Source: a phage
Sequence record: NC_103192.1
Strand: one strand, 5' to 3'
DNA length: 64,000 nt
Shown here: positions 8,101-31,952 of the stretch, in pieces
How the letters are laid out: every line of letters starts with the position of its first letter
How positions within the stretch are numbered: position 1 is the first letter of the stretch
Position numbers and translations under genes: made by a program
Notes under the pieces: generated by a model
Told to the model about the DNA's origin: nothing
The model's input: only the letters and a program-made list of their open reading frames with translations
Database searches by the model: none

Positions 8101-8498
8101 AAGCTTACTCTTCTGTAGCAGGCAAGGAGATTTCCCGTAACGATGGTAAGCCTGTCACGTACGGTGTTATGTACGGGGCACAAAAAGATAAAGTTGCAGA
8201 TATGCTGGACATCTCTCCAGAGTTGGGACAAAGGGTAATCGATGCGCTTTGGGATGCCAACCCCGGTCTTAAGGGGCGTAAAGAGGATCTGGAGAAATTC
8301 TGGGAAGCAACTGGTAAGAAGTTTATCTACTCTTTTGATGGTCATGCCATCTGGACCCGATCTAAACACTCTTTACTTAATGCATACCAACAAAATGGTG
8401 GTGCATCGTTGTGTGACTTAGTTGGGATACTCATGCACCACCAAATGGTGAAGCGTGGGTGGTACGATGAAGGTGTTCGCCGTATTATCTATTACCAT
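5106..8498 (+). CDS. family A DNA polymerase, exon 1 (contains intein 7119..8087)
   Basis: 3'-5' exo motif FDFEASGL; Pol A motif A IGIDGSNLEQ and motif B RNDGKPVTYGVMYGAQ flanking intein; ORF stop 8502..8504 lies in intron. Confidence 0.85.
7119..8087 (+). mobile_element. intein (about 323 aa) with LAGLIDADG-type homing endonuclease-like insert, in DNA polymerase between motifs A and B
   Basis: N-terminal block CYSGDTQILTEKGW, C-terminal ...VYCVTVP...VCGN followed by +1 Cys; internal LLIAIHDDGH and LFIASLSNWDGW dodecapeptide-like motifs; exteins rejoin to ...SNGDAH|CNNAKAY... matching T7-like spacing. Confidence 0.75.
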
Positions 8499-8826
8499 AA
8501 ATAACATTGTGGCTTCGTGCAGTGATGCACGTCGAAAACCTCTTTAATTGACGGGAAGGCTAAGTTGACTTTTACACCTAAACATGGTAAAAGCTCGATA
8601 TGCTAATCCGCAGCGAAGCATCCGAGAGGATGAACGTTCAGAGACTATCGAAAGCATAGCTCCAGCATAGTTTGGTGTGAAGAAGCGAGTAGAGTAGGCC
8701 AGCAAGTGCGGTCGAAATGAGAGGTGCCTTGGTAACAAGGCAGTGAGATAGTCCGATCCATACGGGAAACTGTATGGCTATGCACGTAATGGTGCGGGGT
8801 AGCTTAACGACCTACCTGAACTATTG
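8499..8826 (+). ncRNA. group I self-splicing intron (no ORF) in DNA polymerase motif C
   Basis: Exon ends on U (..YYH, cat) with IGS-like GUGG at intron nt 10-13; core elements P-like ttgacgggaagg, Q-like aatccgcagcg, R gttcagagactatcgaaagc, S gagatagtcc; terminal G at 8826; splicing restores YYHDEYQLQV (Pol A motif C HDE). Confidence 0.75.
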
Positions 8827-17435: not shown

Positions 17436-17761
17436 CAGAGATCATCGTTTCAACTGCAGGGTATGTATTCCTGACAATCATTGCACTGACTATTTTGGTG
17501 ACAGTGTATGGGTTTGTTATCCTTCCTATCCTTGAGACATTTAGTTTGTGTCGGTGTTGGAGAAAAGCTTACGGTCCACAACCATGGAAGGACTGGCCCC
17601 ACCTGGTGCGCTTAGCGTTCTCTTATGCTTACGATCACTCCAGCAGTGCATGCATAACCGGATACCACGCCCACAACTGGAGCTGGGAAGGGTTGAGGAA
17701 ATGGAATGTTACAAAGACCATACCTCTGCGCATGTACAAACCTAAAAACAAAGACAGCTGA
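17432..17761 (+). CDS. hypothetical membrane protein
   Basis: Hydrophobic N-terminal segment VFLTIIALTILVTVYGFVILPIL. Confidence 0.55.
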   Translation: MTEIIVSTAGYVFLTIIALTILVTVYGFVILPILETFSLCRCWRKAYGPQPWKDWPHLVRLAFSYAYDHSSSACITGYHAHNWSWEGLRKWNVTKTIPLRMYKPKNKDS

Positions 17762-18061
17762 TACTTGAAAATTCCTGGCATATCAAGTATAAGGGGGATT
17801 TCTAAAATGGATTTCCTCCTTTTGATATTTCACCAGGCTGGATATTTTAAAATCCTTAGAAAATCAGAAAATGGATCGAAAACTAAAATGGATTTTTTCA
17901 AGACAGGCACGATAAGCTGCGCTGCTCATTCTATCATTCGCACCGTACTTCAAATCACAGTTCCAGATTTTCCACACACACTCTCGCCCATCTAACAGGA
18001 CTTTCCCAACTTACCTTCGACCTTTTATGACAATAAGTTAATTATTATCAGTAAGTTTTGA

Positions 18062-18250
18062 TACATCTCTCTCAGTACTCGATCTGTTTTTCATTTCAAA
18101 GATTGGATTTTCTGAAAATTTTTCTCGATAAATTTCTCAGTACTCGATCTGTTTTTCGTTTTCTGAATTGGATTTTCTGGAAATCGTTCCAGCTCTCGAC
18201 CTGAAATTTTTGGGGACGAAATCGATTTTTCGTTTTCAGAAATGGATTTT
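18062..18250. repeat. tandem iteron-like repeats (about 65-bp unit with TTGGATTTTCTG and CTCAGTACTCGATCTGTTTTTC cores)
   Basis: tctcagtactcgatctgtttttc at 18070 and 18137; (a)ttggattttctg(a/g)aaa at 18101 and 18167; further aaatggatt copies at 17806-17890 and 18241. Confidence 0.5.
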
Positions 18251-18363
18251 TAAAATTTCTATATGGGAATATTTTAGTGGATACTATTTTATAGGAAATT
18301 GTTACGGAGGGTAATTAGCATGCTAACTAAATTTATTAAATGCGAAAAGTTCTCATTTAGAAT

Positions 18364-18557
18364 TTTGAATGATAATCATTCTCGTTTGCAGAATAACGGG
18401 CACCCCCGGTGATTGTCTCCCGGCCCCTGTTGCCCCGGCTTGTTATTATAGTATCACACAGGACAAAGAAAGCAAAGACTTTTTGCATAAATTTTTAAAT
18501 GATAATGATAACCGTTCTCATTTTATGCAGCGCCCATCCCCGGTGGTTGTCTCCCCC
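18364..18557. repeat. two direct copies of about 62-bp element ending CCCCGGTG(A/G)TTGTCTCCC
   Basis: 18364..18425 and 18494..18557 align (tt.aatgataat.at...ctc.tt..gcag...cccc.ccggtg.ttgtctccc); inverted third copy at 27746. Confidence 0.5.
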
Positions 18558-18907
18558 GTCACCGGTGCCTGCCGTCCTTTCGATAGGTATATTGTGCCAC
18601 CTGGCGGGGCCGCTGTCAACACTTTTCAAAAAAAAAAAATTCTAACCTGATGCGCTAACCGTTGCAACCTGGCGGGGCCAGCCTGGCAGGTCCGCGCTAT
18701 AAAGTAAGCAGCTACAGAAGAGGTACAAAAATGAAAAGTAATATAATCCCCTGGAAAATGTAGCGATCAATGCCGCTGAAGTTATCGCCCTGGTTGAAAA
18801 GGCTATGGCGGGAGCGTTGGAACATAAAGAAGAGTACGAAAAAATGGTGGTTAACCTGGCGGGGGGCGGCAGGTGGATTCTATCATAAAAATAATTTAAA
18901 ATAGTCG

Positions 18908-18935
18908 TTGACAACAAGGTTAATCATGGTATTAT
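18908..18935 (+). promoter_or_regulatory. sigma70-like promoter (TTGACA-16-TATTAT)
   Basis: atagtcgttgacaaca context identical to 10301..10316. Confidence 0.55.
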
Positions 18936-18986
18936 TACCCTACAAGGTGAACAACACCACACTAATTAACAGAGAGGATAAAAATC

Positions 18987-19184
18987 ATGAACGCCTACGG
19001 AATTAAAGTACGTCGCAACACTCGCCAGGTGGTCACCGATCAAATGGTTTGCCGGGTGGATGTAACCATCAACAACGGGCAAGGCCTTTATAAATTCTGT
19101 CGCGGTCAGAGCTATACCCTGCAACAGCTTAATCGTTGCGCCCTGACAAAAGGTCAGATCAACCACTGGTTTAATAAAAAATAA
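18987..19184 (+). CDS. hypothetical protein
   Basis: RBS AGAGAGGA. Confidence 0.55.
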   Translation: MNAYGIKVRRNTRQVVTDQMVCRVDVTINNGQGLYKFCRGQSYTLQQLNRCALTKGQINHWFNKK

Positions 19185-19187
19185 ATA

Positions 19188-19216
19188 TTGACATGTAGTC
19201 TGAAACAAAACATACT
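19188..19216 (+). promoter_or_regulatory. sigma70-like promoter (TTGACA-17-CATACT)
   Basis: A-rich upstream tract. Confidence 0.5.
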
Positions 19217-19248
19217 GAAAGCACAAAAGGCACTAAGAGGATAAAATC

Positions 19249-19647
19249 ATGAAAACCACAACCTTTAATTTTGACAATGCTGACTTCTCTTTTTCTGATG
19301 TTAAAAGCTGCCGCCGTGATCGCGGATTCTACAAGGCCTATAATCTGGTTGGCCTGGACGATGATAATAATTTGCACGAAGTAGCGGAGATCCGGTACTA
19401 TGCCGCCGCCAGCGGTAACACTCACTACTGCGTTTTTTGGATACACGACAACAAGAACAATAAGTACGGTTATACTGGCGGCAAGGCGAGCGGTCACGGT
19501 TATGATAAAGCTAACGCAGCACTTGAGAGCGCATTAAATGCTATGGGGATCACTGCCGACGGCTGGATCTACGAAGAAGGGTTTTTGTCGGCACTTGCTG
19601 ACCACCTAGGCTATAAAAAGCACATTGTAACATGTGCCCACGAATAA
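19249..19647 (+). CDS. hypothetical protein
   Basis: RBS AAGAGGA. Confidence 0.6.
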   Translation: MKTTTFNFDNADFSFSDVKSCRRDRGFYKAYNLVGLDDDNNLHEVAEIRYYAAASGNTHYCVFWIHDNKNNKYGYTGGKASGHGYDKANAALESALNAMGITADGWIYEEGFLSALADHLGYKKHIVTCAHE

Positions 19648-19659
19648 AAAAAAAAATTA

Positions 19660-19687
19660 TTGACACGCTGCAAAATTCAAGTAAACT
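19660..19687 (+). promoter_or_regulatory. sigma70-like promoter (TTGACA-16-TAAACT)
   Basis: Preceded by A11 tract. Confidence 0.45.
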
Positions 19688-27682: not shown

Positions 27683-27713
27683 AAAACAGGGCTTGCAATG
27701 GTCCTGTTTTTTG
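27683..27713 (+). terminator. rho-independent terminator
   Basis: aaaacagg-gcttgcaatggt-cctgtttt + TTTG. Confidence 0.55.
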
Positions 27714-27745
27714 TTATACTTATTCTACGGCAGGCACCTGGCGAC

Positions 27746-27765
27746 GGGGGGAGACAATCACCGGG
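27746..27765. repeat. inverted copy of CCCGGTGATTGTCTCCC element
   Basis: gggggagacaatcaccggg is reverse complement of motif at 18404 and 18538. Confidence 0.4.
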
Positions 27766-27796
27766 CCTGCCTGTCATATAAGAACTATAAAAACCG

Positions 27797-29086: not shown

Positions 29087-29639
29087 TGCTCTTCTCCTAC
29101 CATAAACGGCCCCACCCGGCAAGTGGAATAATTGACTAGCCAGCAATTGCCTGCACTGTACAAACATACAGGTAAAATAGTTATTGCATAACCTTTCATT
29201 GTGTGGTAGCAGTGCCATTTTTACACGTTTTTCCTTCCAAAATTGCACGTAATGCCGCTATTGCATAAATTTTAACCTGATGCATATCTTCAATATCTTG
29301 TCAACAACTAAAAATCTTTATAAGTCATACACTTACACCACCACAAAAGCGTGTTCTACGTGAAAAATCGGGTGTAACTATAGCCGCCAGATCTCAGAAT
29401 TTACGTACGCTCACCAGTCTATAGCCTGCTAAGTATTTATTCCAACCATAGAATAACGGAATAGTCAATACCTGCATAAAATAATTATTCGTGTAAACTG
29501 CATAACATAAATCAGCCAGGGTGTCAACATTTTTCGTAAACATCTCGAAATTATCACGATGAGTTATCATAAACAGAGAAATCTTTAGTCGTCTAATGTT
29601 TACTGTACATTACTATACTGGCTGGAATCATTAGATGAC

Positions 29640-30140
29640 TAAGAGAAAGATAAGAAATAGTTAACAATGTAATTGTTTTACCTGTAACAATAAGGCAACT
29701 ATGCAAACGAATGGCATGGCGCGACGGAGTCGCGACATAATATAAAAGCAGTAACCATCACCCCCGTGATAGTTTGTCTGCAAACTATTAATCAGATCAT
29801 AGTTGCCTTGTAGTTAGTTAATCATGACACAATAAGCAAGGCAACTATAGATCTGCTAATAGTTGCCCTGCTTTTATATTATGTCATAGAAACACCCGAA
29901 GGGGTGACCGAAGGTCACCTGGCCTAGCCAGTGAAAGATTATTAACTTGTTAATTGTTAACTTGCTAATTGTTTTCATGCAAACGAATGTCATGGCTTAT
30001 CATATCTGCGTGAACAGTGAAACATGGAAATGATAAATATGTGAACAGTTATCCATGTAAACTATTAGACATGCAAACAATCAGGTGTGCAAAAGTGACA
30101 TAGTATGTCACCAGTATGTCATAGTATGTCAGACAAGTTT
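29640..30140. repeat. repeat-dense non-coding region (alternating GGCAACTAT/ATAGTTGCC sites, palindromes, short direct repeats)
   Basis: GGCAACTAT at 29695 and 29840, inverted at 29792 and 29862; palindrome GGTGACCgaaGGTCACC about 29905; gcaaacgaatg(g/t)catggc x2; ttaacttg(t/c)taattgtt x2; agtatgtca x3. Confidence 0.5.
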
Positions 30141-31616
30141 TTCTCCTCTTTGTCAAGTGCTGCATGGAAAATTTACAAACTGGTATGGTAGCATTTTTGC
30201 GGCCCTGTTTACATTCAGGAGTGTATGTATAATCCTTGTTGTGTGGGCGTTTAGACGTCTGGACGGTCAGAAGTCCGCAGGTTAATATCTAATCTATTGG
30301 TTGCTAACTATATCCCACACAAATAGTAAGAAATATAATTGTTATATGCGTAAACAGTAACTCATGTTATCAATCCATGTATGGATCGCCAGTGGTGCGC
30401 ATAATGGGTATTATGTTAAATTGCCCGTAATGATAACCATTCCCACAATGATAGGTATTCTCATTCACCCCCACAAGATAGGTTGCAAATGTTGTGCCAC
30501 TGTGTGAACGGCCTCACCTATTAATTTGCCCCACTGCCTCGATATTTGAGAATTGTTATAAGAATGAGAAGTATTCCCATTCCGTCCGCCTGGCAGCACT
30601 CCAGTCGCTAACGCTCTCGGGCTGAGAGCTATGCTCGATGCTACCGGCTCCTGACAGGGAGGCACTCCTGTAGGACAGGTCAAAATCGGGGCATAACTGG
30701 ACCCCCCTTCAGATATTTCTGGCTGACTCTTCAGGTCTGTGTGGGAAAAGCCAACCTCTCCGGCAGAGGGGAGGGGGTCAATTAAAAAATTTACGTGGTG
30801 TATGAAGCGCTCTTCAGGCAAGGTGTGTATTATGGGAGGAATCACTCTTCAGGTGATGATATTTGTGGGTGTGATATTTGCTGGAAAGCCAGATATGACG
30901 GGACTCCCGGCGGGGCAGGGGTAGTACAGACAGGGAAAATGTGGAGAATGTGGTGGGTAAATTGATCAGGCAGGTAGAGTATGAAATATGTTACAGGTAT
31001 GTTAAATATGGAGGGTGAATATCTGTAAGATTTGTGTGTAAAATCAAAGACTTAAGTGGTGTTGTGGTATTTTCTATAAATAATTCAAGTTTAATAGGTA
31101 ATATTTGTCTCTATCCACTTTGTGTGGTAACCAGATTCAGATGAAATTGGTTTACAAGTGTATACATAATATACAAATTAAAGATACAAGAAACCCCCCT
31201 CCCCCTTCGGCTACCATTCACCTTTTCCTCTGACTGGTACTTAAACACTTATTCAGACTCTTCAGGTTATCACCCATATATCATATGGCAGTGACTGGTG
31301 TCCTCCGGCCCCTCTTTCGTCACCCGTCCGCTTCGCCATGCTAATGCCATAGCCAAAGGTTCGGTTGTTCACCCTGTTCACTCAGGTGTATCTCCATACC
31401 CCTTCAAACCGAAGAGAACAGAAAACCCGAATTACTCGGTAAAAGAAAAGAGAAGAACTTAATTTTATCAGGATAGGCAAGAATGTCAAGGCATGACTGC
31501 TCACTAAACAAGCAAACAGTCATGTGTGGGAGGTAAGTGATTGTGGTGGTAGGAAATTTAGTTGAAAGATGTGTTATAGGTGCTTCCAGCACTTTAGCCG
31601 GGCAGCTAATTGTGTG

Positions 31617-31832
31617 TCAGTCCAGCGGTTCATCTACTACTTCACTGAAATCAATGTTCAGAGTCTCTTCCCAACCATCGATCTCAGCACAAGAGTGGAG
31701 TTCTTTAGGGTTTACTCCCAAAGCCTCAGCAACAGAGTCTATATTTAACACCTCTGGCAGGTATGATTCATCGAATTCAAGGTAAATCAGGCCACGAGTG
31801 TTGTCAGCTCCACCAAATATTTCTATCTTCAT
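31617..31832 (-). CDS. hypothetical small acidic protein (EIVEE-tail paralog family)
   Basis: RBS AGGAG; MKIEIFGG start and acidic C-terminus like array members. Confidence 0.55.
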   Translation of the reverse strand: MKIEIFGGADNTRGLIYLEFDESYLPEVLNIDSVAEALGVNPKELHSCAEIDGWEETLNIDFSEVVDEPLD

Positions 31833-31952
31833 AAAATCTCCTCTGGAAATGAGAGTGTGAACAGGGTTATACGTTCCAATGCACTGGAATTTATATACGT
31901 TTGCCTCTTCAGGCCATGCTTTAGCATGATAAACTTGTGTGGGCTCGGTACT

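Follow-up and report, generated by a model that had tools for sequence, protein, structure and literature searches.

This study concerns a short repeated element in a 64,000-nucleotide stretch of phage DNA (sequence record NC_103192.1); the whole stretch is referred to here as the window, and its positions are numbered 5' to 3' from its first letter. Two direct copies of the element, c1 and c2, are found at about 18.4 kb, and an inverted third copy, c3, is found at about 27.7 kb. In a megablast search, positions 17800-19300 matched 121 phage records at 80-95% identity, with the Escherichia phages FV3, Gotham, and Mangalyan at the top; by sequence comparison, the window is that of a Vequintavirus (rV5/FV3-like), an E. 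coli phage of a genus with genomes of about 136 kb. All of the convincing genes near the 18.4-kb repeats are on the plus strand; they end at 17761 and restart at 18987, leaving 1.2 kb (17762-18986) without a credible open reading frame (ORF).

A preliminary description had reported the repeat, and the repetition proved to be real. The 18-mer CCCCGGTGRTTGTCTCCC is present without mismatch on the plus strand at 18404-18421 and 18538-18555, and with one mismatch on the minus strand at 27749-27766; its chance expectation is 0.05, and three matches were obtained in 0 of 100 shuffles. A repeat finder also recovered the two direct copies with the AT-rich and GC-rich parts described for them. The AT-rich parts (18355-18387 and 18491-18523) are 73% identical, the GC-rich parts (18401-18421 and 18535-18555) are 90% identical, and the period is 134-136 bp. 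A hidden Markov model (HMM) of 38 instances, run against the 64 kb, found three copies only, with E values of 2.4e-10 (c1), 5.5e-7 (c2), and 2.5e-10 (c3), the next match having E > 3. A 48-nt query found 2-3 places in each related complete genome, and from these searches the copy number of the element is three per genome.

The similarity on the opposite strand is longer than had been described. The minus strand of c2 and the plus strand of c3 share ACGGCAGGCACC..GG.GACGGGGGAGACAAYCACCGG, so that these copies align over about 45 nt, not 18, on the strand that reads GGGAGACAAYCACCGG. On that strand, c1 (18391-18440, minus; core 18404-18421) reads GCCGGGGCAACAGGGGCCGGGAGACAATCACCGGGGGTGCCCGTTATTCTG and was aligned with orthologues from six genera (nhmmer E 2.4e-10). 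Copy c2 (18525-18580, minus; core 18538-18555) reads ACGGCAGGCACCGGTGACGGGGGAGACAACCACCGGGGATGGGCGCTGC and can form the stem CCGGUG/CACCGG (z -2.4), and c3 (27729-27775, plus; core 27749-27766) reads CGGCAGGCACCTGGCGACGGGGGGAGACAATCACCGGGCCTGCCTG and can form the outer stem GGCAGGC/GCCUGCC (-23.8 kcal/mol, z -2.5).

The copies are non-coding. Annotators differ on the small ORFs that they call across the 18.4-kb repeats; one ORF of 93 amino acids, annotated in relatives (18369-18650 of the window), spans both copies there. A protein-coding repeat was rejected, since the 134-136-bp period is not divisible by 3 and the 93-amino-acid ORF has two in-frame stops in the related loci L017 and L154. 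Public annotation, in which hypothetical ORFs have been called over a non-coding element, is corrected by this result.

The orientation implied by the preliminary description had to be reversed, because the promoters lie upstream of the opposite strand, the one reading GGGAGACAAYCACCGG. This sequence is on the minus strand at 18.4 kb and on the plus strand at 27.7 kb, and each copy follows a promoter of the sigma-70 type, the motif starting 21-35 nt downstream of the -10. In this GGAGACAA orientation, two of the window promoters were found by a promoter scan and the third, that of c1, by eye. The c2 promoter (18591-18619, minus) is TTGACA-17-CACAAT with TG before the -10 and scores 10/12; a T12 tract, read from the sequence, lies just upstream of it on its own strand (18628-18639). 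For c3, a composite terminator and early promoter occupies 27683-27720 on the plus strand: the -35 of TTGCAA-16-TATACT (27693-27720) is in the loop of the preceding gene's terminator (stem-loop 27683-27710), and its -10 is past the T-run. The same arrangement is present upstream of c3 in relatives. The candidate c1 promoter (18445-18475, minus) has a -35 of TTGCTT at 18475-18470, a 19-nt spacer, and a -10 of TATAAT at 18450-18445; because the scanner takes only spacers of 16-18 nt, this promoter is absent from the scan.

Promoters of the relatives were likewise read by eye in the upstream flanks. Those of c1 orthologues have spacers of 16-17 nt: TTGCAA-17-TATATT in CR8 and Mydo, TTGATC-16-TATTAT in GEC, and TTGCTT-16-TATTCT in anhysbys. 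Promoters were clear at the c1 and c3 loci of the Vequintavirinae and Stephanstirmvirinae and at the four copies in the IMG/VR contig 3300027123_000194; in L005, none could be placed by eye. Many strong early promoters of the window (e.g., 19660, 20331, 22203, 26038, 26369, 26897, and 27797) have a GC-rich hairpin within 5-10 nt of the predicted start, for example AGGCGGGAAUGUUUCCCGCC and AUAGGGCGGCAAUAGUGCCGCUCAC, and leaders of this phage seem in general to be built in this way.

The AT-rich part, which the preliminary description had called a leader, is downstream of the core and is instead a predicted operator resembling a Fur box. The consensus for Fur is GATAATGATAATCATTATC, and the 7-1-7 model of its site is TGATAATnATTATCA. 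The site adjoining c1 (18365-18384, TTGAATGATAATCATTCTC) agrees with the consensus at 15/19 positions, contains the 7-1-7 unit TGATAATCATTCTCG at 18370-18384, and begins 21 nt downstream of the c1 CACCGG. That adjoining c2 (18501-18520, GATAATGATAACCGTTCTC) agrees at 16/19 positions, has its 7-1-7 unit at 18506-18520, and begins 19 nt downstream of the c2 CACCGG. Positions 18501-18519 are the best match to the E. coli Fur consensus in the window (3 mismatches), and with 18365-18383 (4 mismatches) they make up the two top 19-mer matches on both strands of the 64 kb, where the shuffle mean is 0.2 at 4 or fewer mismatches. There are nine 7-1-7 units (TGAKAATNATTMTCA, 2 or fewer mismatches) in the window versus 1.5 expected, with the unit form TGA(G/T)AATnATT(C/A)TCA.

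The order and spacing of element and box are fixed. In every c1 copy, across six genera, CACCGG is followed by the first Fur-like box at exactly 21 nt; in c2 this interval is 19 nt, and in the c3 copies of Certrevirus, Seunavirus, and KP13-26 it is 51 nt. No box was found upstream of any element examined, except for the box belonging to a neighboring copy. Relatives carry arrays of up to five units, often with a 29-nt period (3-5 palindromes, AAATGAGAATCATTCTCATTT, e.g., in L146 1027-1137 of CR8, L021 1451-1552 of anhysbys, and L150 12523-12630 of PD06). Arrays in CR8, POP18, and anhysbys keep a regular 29-nt period, with offsets of 21, 50, 79, and 108 from the element, and those of PD06 and KKP_3264 have five boxes at the irregular offsets 21, 38, 62, 91, and 114. 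A tblastn search for a phage-encoded Fur found no homologue in these subfamilies; thus, the boxes would have to bind the host protein.

The preliminary description had called for a motif search that included relatives, and this search showed that the elements are conserved well beyond the genus, as small constrained non-coding units. Sensitive BLASTN with 18330-18900 matched 202 records. In Mydovirus, Certrevirus, Seunavirus, and Phapecoctavirus (Stephanstirmvirinae), only 18332-18436, that is, c1 with its Fur box, still aligned, at 70-90% identity. The c3 region behaved alike: only 27684-27771 aligned. For the two stretches together, the identity was 79-90% over these genera and Justusliebigvirus. 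These alignments indicate that a cassette of promoter, leader, and Fur box is kept at two syntenic loci in the Vequintavirinae and Stephanstirmvirinae where the flanks no longer align.

Twenty-five related loci were fetched, and searching for relatives by flanking proteins gave only 2 IMG/VR loci. The genomes examined carry a c1-type copy and, mostly, a c3-type copy 7.9-11.6 kb away in divergent orientation. Mydo has Fur-like boxes at the c3 position and no core, c3 was not found in the EC152 stretch, and c1 was not found in the KP13-26 stretch; in DU_PP_I, which is related to phiTE, c1 is at about 74.4 kb. From genus to genus, c3 is followed by genes of different PHROGs, and therefore the element is conserved independently of its neighbors. 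In transcript orientation, the consensus runs from the -10 through some 7 nt and a variable 5' arm rich in GC to GGGGAGACAAnCACCGG, N3, TGCC(C/T)G(C/T)TATTC(T/A)G, and finally the Fur-like boxes, and a 15-nt motif is nearly invariant across the two subfamilies.

The core GGAGACAAnCACCGG was also present in apparently unrelated phage contigs (L007 461-477; L010 1781-1797, 2701-2716, and 3332-3347 of IMG/VR contig 3300027123_000194; L005 2540-2556). Contig 3300027123_000194 has four core copies, each 21-22 nt after a TATAAT. Three of these are in mRNA 5' leaders, and one has a terminator about 90 nt downstream (L010 1766-1855); this terminated copy looks like a small RNA gene.

Similarity between copies within a genome has a second source. 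The c3 of MiataMamis (L154 552-567) has a c2-type interior (CACCGGTGACGGGGGAGACAACCACC), and c2 and c3 of ime (L151 1979-1994 and 10496-10511) share a G-to-T change (GGTGGAGACAA). By comparison of these sequences, the copies undergo gene conversion, and their similarity is partly concerted evolution rather than evidence of antisense pairing. Strict co-variation between c1/c2 and c3, as a trans antisense pair, was sought and not found; the parallel changes look like gene conversion. In slur16, the G-run of c3 is expanded to G11.

The reading that we favor, tentatively and with slightly less than even confidence, is that the three repeats are copies of one early-region cis-regulatory cassette of promoter, leader element, and Fur operator, in which the nascent leader is the most likely place of action of the motif and read-through is gated by the Fur of the host. 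Its parts stand in a fixed order and orientation. The first is a predicted promoter of the host sigma-70 type. The second is a GC-rich leader of about 45-55 nt, starting at, or only a few nucleotides from, the predicted start of transcription and bearing the invariant GGAGACAAnCACCGG followed by (C)TGCC(C/T)G(C/T)TATTC. The third consists of one to five Fur operator-like sequences, present at c1, at c2, and at c3 of most relatives; the c3 of the window has none. The tandem cassette at 18.4 kb (c2, then c1) would fire leftward (minus strand), opposite to the genes on either side and toward three AT-rich iterons, and the c3 cassette at 27.7 kb would fire rightward into early genes. In the nascent RNA, the motif would form an imperfect stem-loop (inner helix P2, CCnGGYG with CACCGG) displaying GGGGAGACAA, which could serve as a binding or processing determinant for some factor. 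Fur-Fe2+ bound just behind the motif would gate the travel of RNA polymerase, and read-through would therefore depend on the iron status of the host.

The preliminary description had attributed GC-rich hairpin potential to the copies; folding lent this modest support, with mixed z-scores and no RNAalifold consensus. The c1 outer helix, P1, was 84.6% paired across the alignment versus 40-55% in slid controls, and P2 was 85% paired versus 18-47% when slid. On the strand opposite to GGGAGACAAYCACCGG, P1 pairing fell from 84.6% to 72.8% because many of the pairs are G.U (13 G.U pairs in the rows from outside Vequintavirus). Compensatory changes seen by eye were GCGGG/CCCGC in CR8 versus GCAGG/CCUGC in L096, and CCGG/CCGG versus CCAG/CUGG in L013; L005 has a perfect 9-bp stem around the loop GGAGACAAU (z -4.5). 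Pairs changed on both sides numbered 1 in P1 and 0 in P2. The evidence for an RNA structure is thus modest: the helices are compatible with the sequences, and there is little covariation.

Several observations weigh against the favored reading. Shuffle controls did not separate P1 or P2 from column composition, RNAalifold of 19 c2 and c3 sequences gave essentially no consensus (-2.7 kcal/mol, no compensatory pairs), and single-sequence folding gave z from -4.5 to +0.8, near zero for many orthologues. Conservation is chiefly of primary sequence, which a protein site in DNA would fit equally well. In Vequintavirus c1, the 5' strand of P1 partly overlaps the -10 box, and that part may stay untranscribed. 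The c3 of the window and those of the Stephanstirmvirinae phages anhysbys and KKP_3264 have no Fur box within 260 nt, so the core can presumably work without Fur. Fur boxes usually overlap the -35 and -10, and those described here are at about +50 to +75 of a strong promoter, where we infer that Fur would act as a roadblock at the predicted sites. They also have a G in place of the T of the classical consensus (TGAGAAT), as does the aerobactin iucA operator. Literature searches turned up no expression data for these phages.

The same conservation bears on a DNA operator, in which GGAGACAAnCACCGG, together with the upstream GGCACCTGG that c2 and c3 carry, would be a duplex site for a phage or host protein. 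Placed at +15 to +45 of three promoters, such a site might cooperate with Fur at a fixed distance and switch the promoters off or on. The conservation of primary sequence rather than pairing is what this explanation would predict, and it would accommodate the Fur-box spacing fixed at 21 nt in six genera and the two CACC(N)GG units of c2 and c3, which are 22-24 bp apart, or about two helical turns. The recurrence of ACCTGGCGGGG three more times within the same 500 bp, once in a promoter spacer, also agrees with it. However, the site lacks dyad symmetry, no candidate binding protein was identified, and the G.U-rich pairing favors one strand; moreover, the flanks differ in L005 and L010, which are from unrelated phages, and yet still form a stem around the same loop. 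We consider an operator of this kind unlikely.

The preliminary description had listed ACCTGGCGGGG at four sites. Three of these are exact, at 18599, 18667, and 18854 on the plus strand; the site at 27736 is inexact and reads cACCTGGCGacGGGG, in which the motif is interrupted (ACCTGGCGacGGGG); it makes up the 5' arm of c3. The expectation is 0.44, with up to 1 mismatch allowed. The first exact copy (18599-18609) is within the spacer of the minus-strand c2 promoter, and the second (18667-18677) and third (18854-18864) each begin a possible hairpin, ACCUG...CAGGU, read from the sequence. These hairpins (18662-18705 and 18850-18890) stand between TTGCAA or GTTAAC and TATAAA or TATCAT hexamers that are 25-30 nt apart; this distance is too long for a normal promoter, and the TATAAA is not conserved in close relatives.

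The Fur-like boxes would take on a different role if the functional transcripts came from the plus strand. In the strongest form of a small-RNA explanation, Fur-repressed plus-strand promoters (TTGAAT-18-CAGAAT) would make short RNAs with CCCGGUGAUUGUCUCCC. These RNAs would form duplexes of 17-23 nt with the leader of c3 and also, in cis, with those of c1 and c2. The Fur box would then lie across the putative -35 and -10 and the stretch between them, as is classical for repression; complementarity to c3 is perfect over 17-18 nt, and c1 and c3 carry the same variable base in GEC_vB_MG and in the window. However, anhysbys and IMG/VR 3300010279 show no co-variation of this base, and the shared changes are better explained by gene conversion, as in MiataMamis. 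The plus-strand promoter across the AT-rich segment, the only candidate with a Fur-like site over its -35 and -10, is weak: read by eye, it matches 8/12 consensus positions at c1 and fewer at c2, and it was not reported by the scan. Its CAGAAT is kept in c3 even where no Fur box adjoins it. The same bases in leader orientation, the ATTCTG after the hairpin, are kept in Certrevirus and Seunavirus c3 although the Fur box is 30 nt further off, which argues against their being the -10 of a plus-strand promoter. Small RNAs had been among the roles suggested in the preliminary description; as genes for trans-acting RNAs, the copies do have promoters, but the scan found no terminator after any window copy on either strand. 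We regard this explanation as very unlikely.

Two more of the suggested roles, attenuator and nuclease site, did not agree with the results. The copies are followed by GUUAUUCUG, AUAAAAUG, and UGUCAUAUA; none has a U-run after it, and the scan found no terminator. With regard to a nuclease or homing-endonuclease target, all of the copies are intergenic, and no HNH or GIY-YIG gene adjoins them in the window or does so consistently in relatives; a single HNH gene about 500 bp from an element was found in SSE121 only. Rfam at the gathering score gave nothing at 18.4 or 27.7 kb or at the related loci, and in E-value mode it gave only chance-level snoRNA and sRNA matches far under the thresholds. 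No tRNA or tmRNA was found. The element had no match in 5,426 E. coli genomes, and a host origin was rejected. By eye, there was no convincing match to Chi, a DnaA box, an IHF site, boxA/boxB, or ops.

Four further candidates were rejected or given little weight. A second promoter would be GAGACA-18-TATTCT, which would place the Fur box at +1; it matches 8/12 positions, is missing from the L007 and L010 copies, and leaves the conserved spacer unexplained, and we consider its likelihood remote. A sigma-54 promoter (TGGCAC-N5-TTGCA) in the 5' arm had the wrong spacing by eye, and a G-quadruplex was inconsistent between copies. In a comparison with the pseudo-ToxI of phiTE, the only stretch shared by eye with the ToxI repeat was GGTGATT.

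The direction of the c1 and c2 promoters bears on replication. Three AT-rich iterons of 65-74 bp (TCTCAGTACTCGATCTGTTTTTCGTTTTCTGAATTGGATTTT...), found by the repeat finder as families D1 and D2, lie at 18065-18250, with further occurrences at 17799-17814 and 17880-17895, downstream of c1 in its direction of transcription. Tandem Repeats Finder (TRF) did not pick them up because they are too diverged. Recognizably similar iterons are present in CR8 (L019, about 1190-1370) and GEC_vB_MG (L024, about 940-1150), and those at 18065-18250 could be an origin or another protein-binding array. The ORF-free 17762-18986 might accordingly be the replication origin, with the c2 and c1 promoters sending G-rich transcripts through the AT-rich Fur-like boxes into the iterons, where they would activate or prime replication as at T4 oriF/oriG, T7 phi1.1A/B, or ColE1 RNA II. 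This proposal has in its favor the iterons and their counterparts, promoters that are aimed at them and against all flanking genes, and G-runs (G5-G11) in the leaders. In the rV5 genome paper, the origin could not be placed, and a box is marked "non-coding" (PMC3606486). The likeness to the T4, T7 primary, and ColE1 origins extends to the AT-rich stretch and the large ORF-free region, but the c3 and 3300027123_000194 copies have no iterons. A gene begins 100 nt after c3, and the copies in 3300027123_000194 stand at the head of ordinary mRNA leaders and, in one case, of a short RNA with a terminator. Nor does priming give a reason for Fur-like palindromes in 29-nt arrays, and we judge it distinctly improbable.

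The fourth alternative is that the repeats have no dedicated function and are generic 5' stabilizer hairpins or recombination-prone promoter cassettes, kept alike by gene conversion. The cassettes in question are the promoter-early stem-loops (PeSLs) of T4-like phages (Arbiol et al. 2010, PMC2839356; Comeau et al. 2014, PMC4122927). The likeness is one of arrangement. Both are short repeated cassettes of a sigma-70 promoter and a stem-loop, found in large lytic myoviruses in early regions that are rich in ORFans; the copies here exchange sequence, and their neighboring genes differ among relatives. At c3, although not at c1 or c2, a terminator stem-loop (27683-27710) is fused to the promoter. 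Gene conversion between copies is visible, c3 stands behind a composite terminator/promoter, and the other early promoters at 19660, 22203, 26038, 26369, 26897, and 27797 also precede a GC hairpin. Against this, the conserved part of a PeSL is the terminator/promoter, in many copies, whereas here it is the predicted transcribed leader, in three copies, with a 15-nt motif and a Fur box. Stabilizer hairpins such as that of the ompA 5' untranslated region resemble the element in having a stem within a few nucleotides of the predicted 5' end, but they need structure rather than sequence; the element has an invariant sequence and a structure that is only weakly conserved. A near-invariant 15-nt motif in two subfamilies and in unrelated contigs far exceeds what a stabilizer hairpin needs, and each genome has no more than three copies, which occupy syntenic positions. 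The chance that the repeats lack a dedicated function seems small.

The favored cassette can also be compared with other early regulatory sites. Like lambda nut boxA/boxB and HK022 put, the element follows just after early promoters, in few copies, in divergent orientation, and among early genes separated by terminators. Unlike them, it has no boxA or boxB by eye, and no two-stem put-like structure is supported; the parallel is purely a functional speculation. Fur-repressed promoters share with it the 15-16/19 consensus matches, the palindromic 7-1-7 units, often arrayed, and the lack of a phage Fur gene. In those promoters, the boxes lie over the -35 and -10 rather than at +50 to +75. Fur boxes have been described on prophage cargo, in the sit operon of lambdoid phages (PMC6969025); the predicted boxes here are in a strictly lytic phage, adjoin non-coding DNA rather than an iron-uptake gene, and have a 29-nt period. 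Literature searches on Fur boxes, transcriptomes, and origins in these phages found nothing relevant, and the cassette looks unreported: neither PeSLs nor prophage Fur boxes combine an invariant transcribed leader with Fur arrays in a lytic phage.

The arrangement of predicted promoter, leader, and Fur sites suggests that a lytic phage may couple part of its early program to the iron status of its host. We consider it doubtful that these lytic phages use the host iron regulator in their own circuitry, whether through iron-dependent transcripts or as a Fur sponge. If this were true, either the Fur arrays, set at a fixed distance behind the leader, would put a set of early or non-coding transcripts under the control of iron, and perhaps the firing of an origin as well, or the arrays, multiplied by genome replication, would form a natural Fur sponge that derepresses host iron uptake to the benefit of the phage. 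The GGAGACAAnCACCGG leader would then represent a new class of RNA or DNA motif common to unrelated phages.

The Vequintavirinae (rV5, FV3, PVP-SE1, phiTE) and Stephanstirmvirinae (phAPEC8, phi92) are broad-host-range phages much used in biocontrol and therapy, and we know of no account of their early regulation or replication origins. Survival of a cassette at the nucleotide level while nearby genes are replaced is the mark of a control point. Its constant partnership with Fur-box arrays provides a directly testable hypothesis, that the iron status of the host is sensed, or altered, by a phage that is strictly lytic; such a link, if true, would matter for phage efficacy at iron-limited sites such as gut, urine, and blood. 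The defined motif can also be used for searches in other phages.

In other genera, a strongly conserved block of about 100 nt adjoins c1 (CTACCGGCGATCCACCTTCC...GTTAGCCCCGCCTTTTCGCCGTGGGGTGGCG) and contains a covarying hairpin, ACCAGG/CCUGGU. It was found in L018 1643-1800, L019 1608-1765, L020 1610-1767, and L021 1650-1807, and also in L147, L149, L150, L157, and L158. The block had no Rfam match and, with up to 3 mismatches allowed, 0 matches in the window; a structured RNA that has not been described before is one possible identity for it.

Three features elsewhere in the window or its relatives were recorded. A second ORF-poor stretch of about 2.7 kb (29250-31950) has repeats of its own, such as the gtcatagtatgtca units near 30095-30135, and holds two pairs of Fur-like 7-1-7 boxes (30431/30449 and 30547/30565). 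The ORF-free gap of CR8 has a comparable box cluster (L146 13448-14024). A group I catalytic intron at 8489-8776 on the plus strand (Rfam RF00028, 73.7 bits, E 8e-17) lies 10 kb from the copies. Finally, in these regions 16-18 records labeled "Campylobacter phage" (e.g., MG065654) share 84-100% identity with E. coli Vequintavirus, and c1 and c3 of "Pseudomonas phage PsgM04F" are nearly identical to those of the E. coli Stephanstirmvirinae phages phiWec181 and PD06; judged by these identities, the host labels of the "Campylobacter phage" records and of PsgM04F look doubtful.

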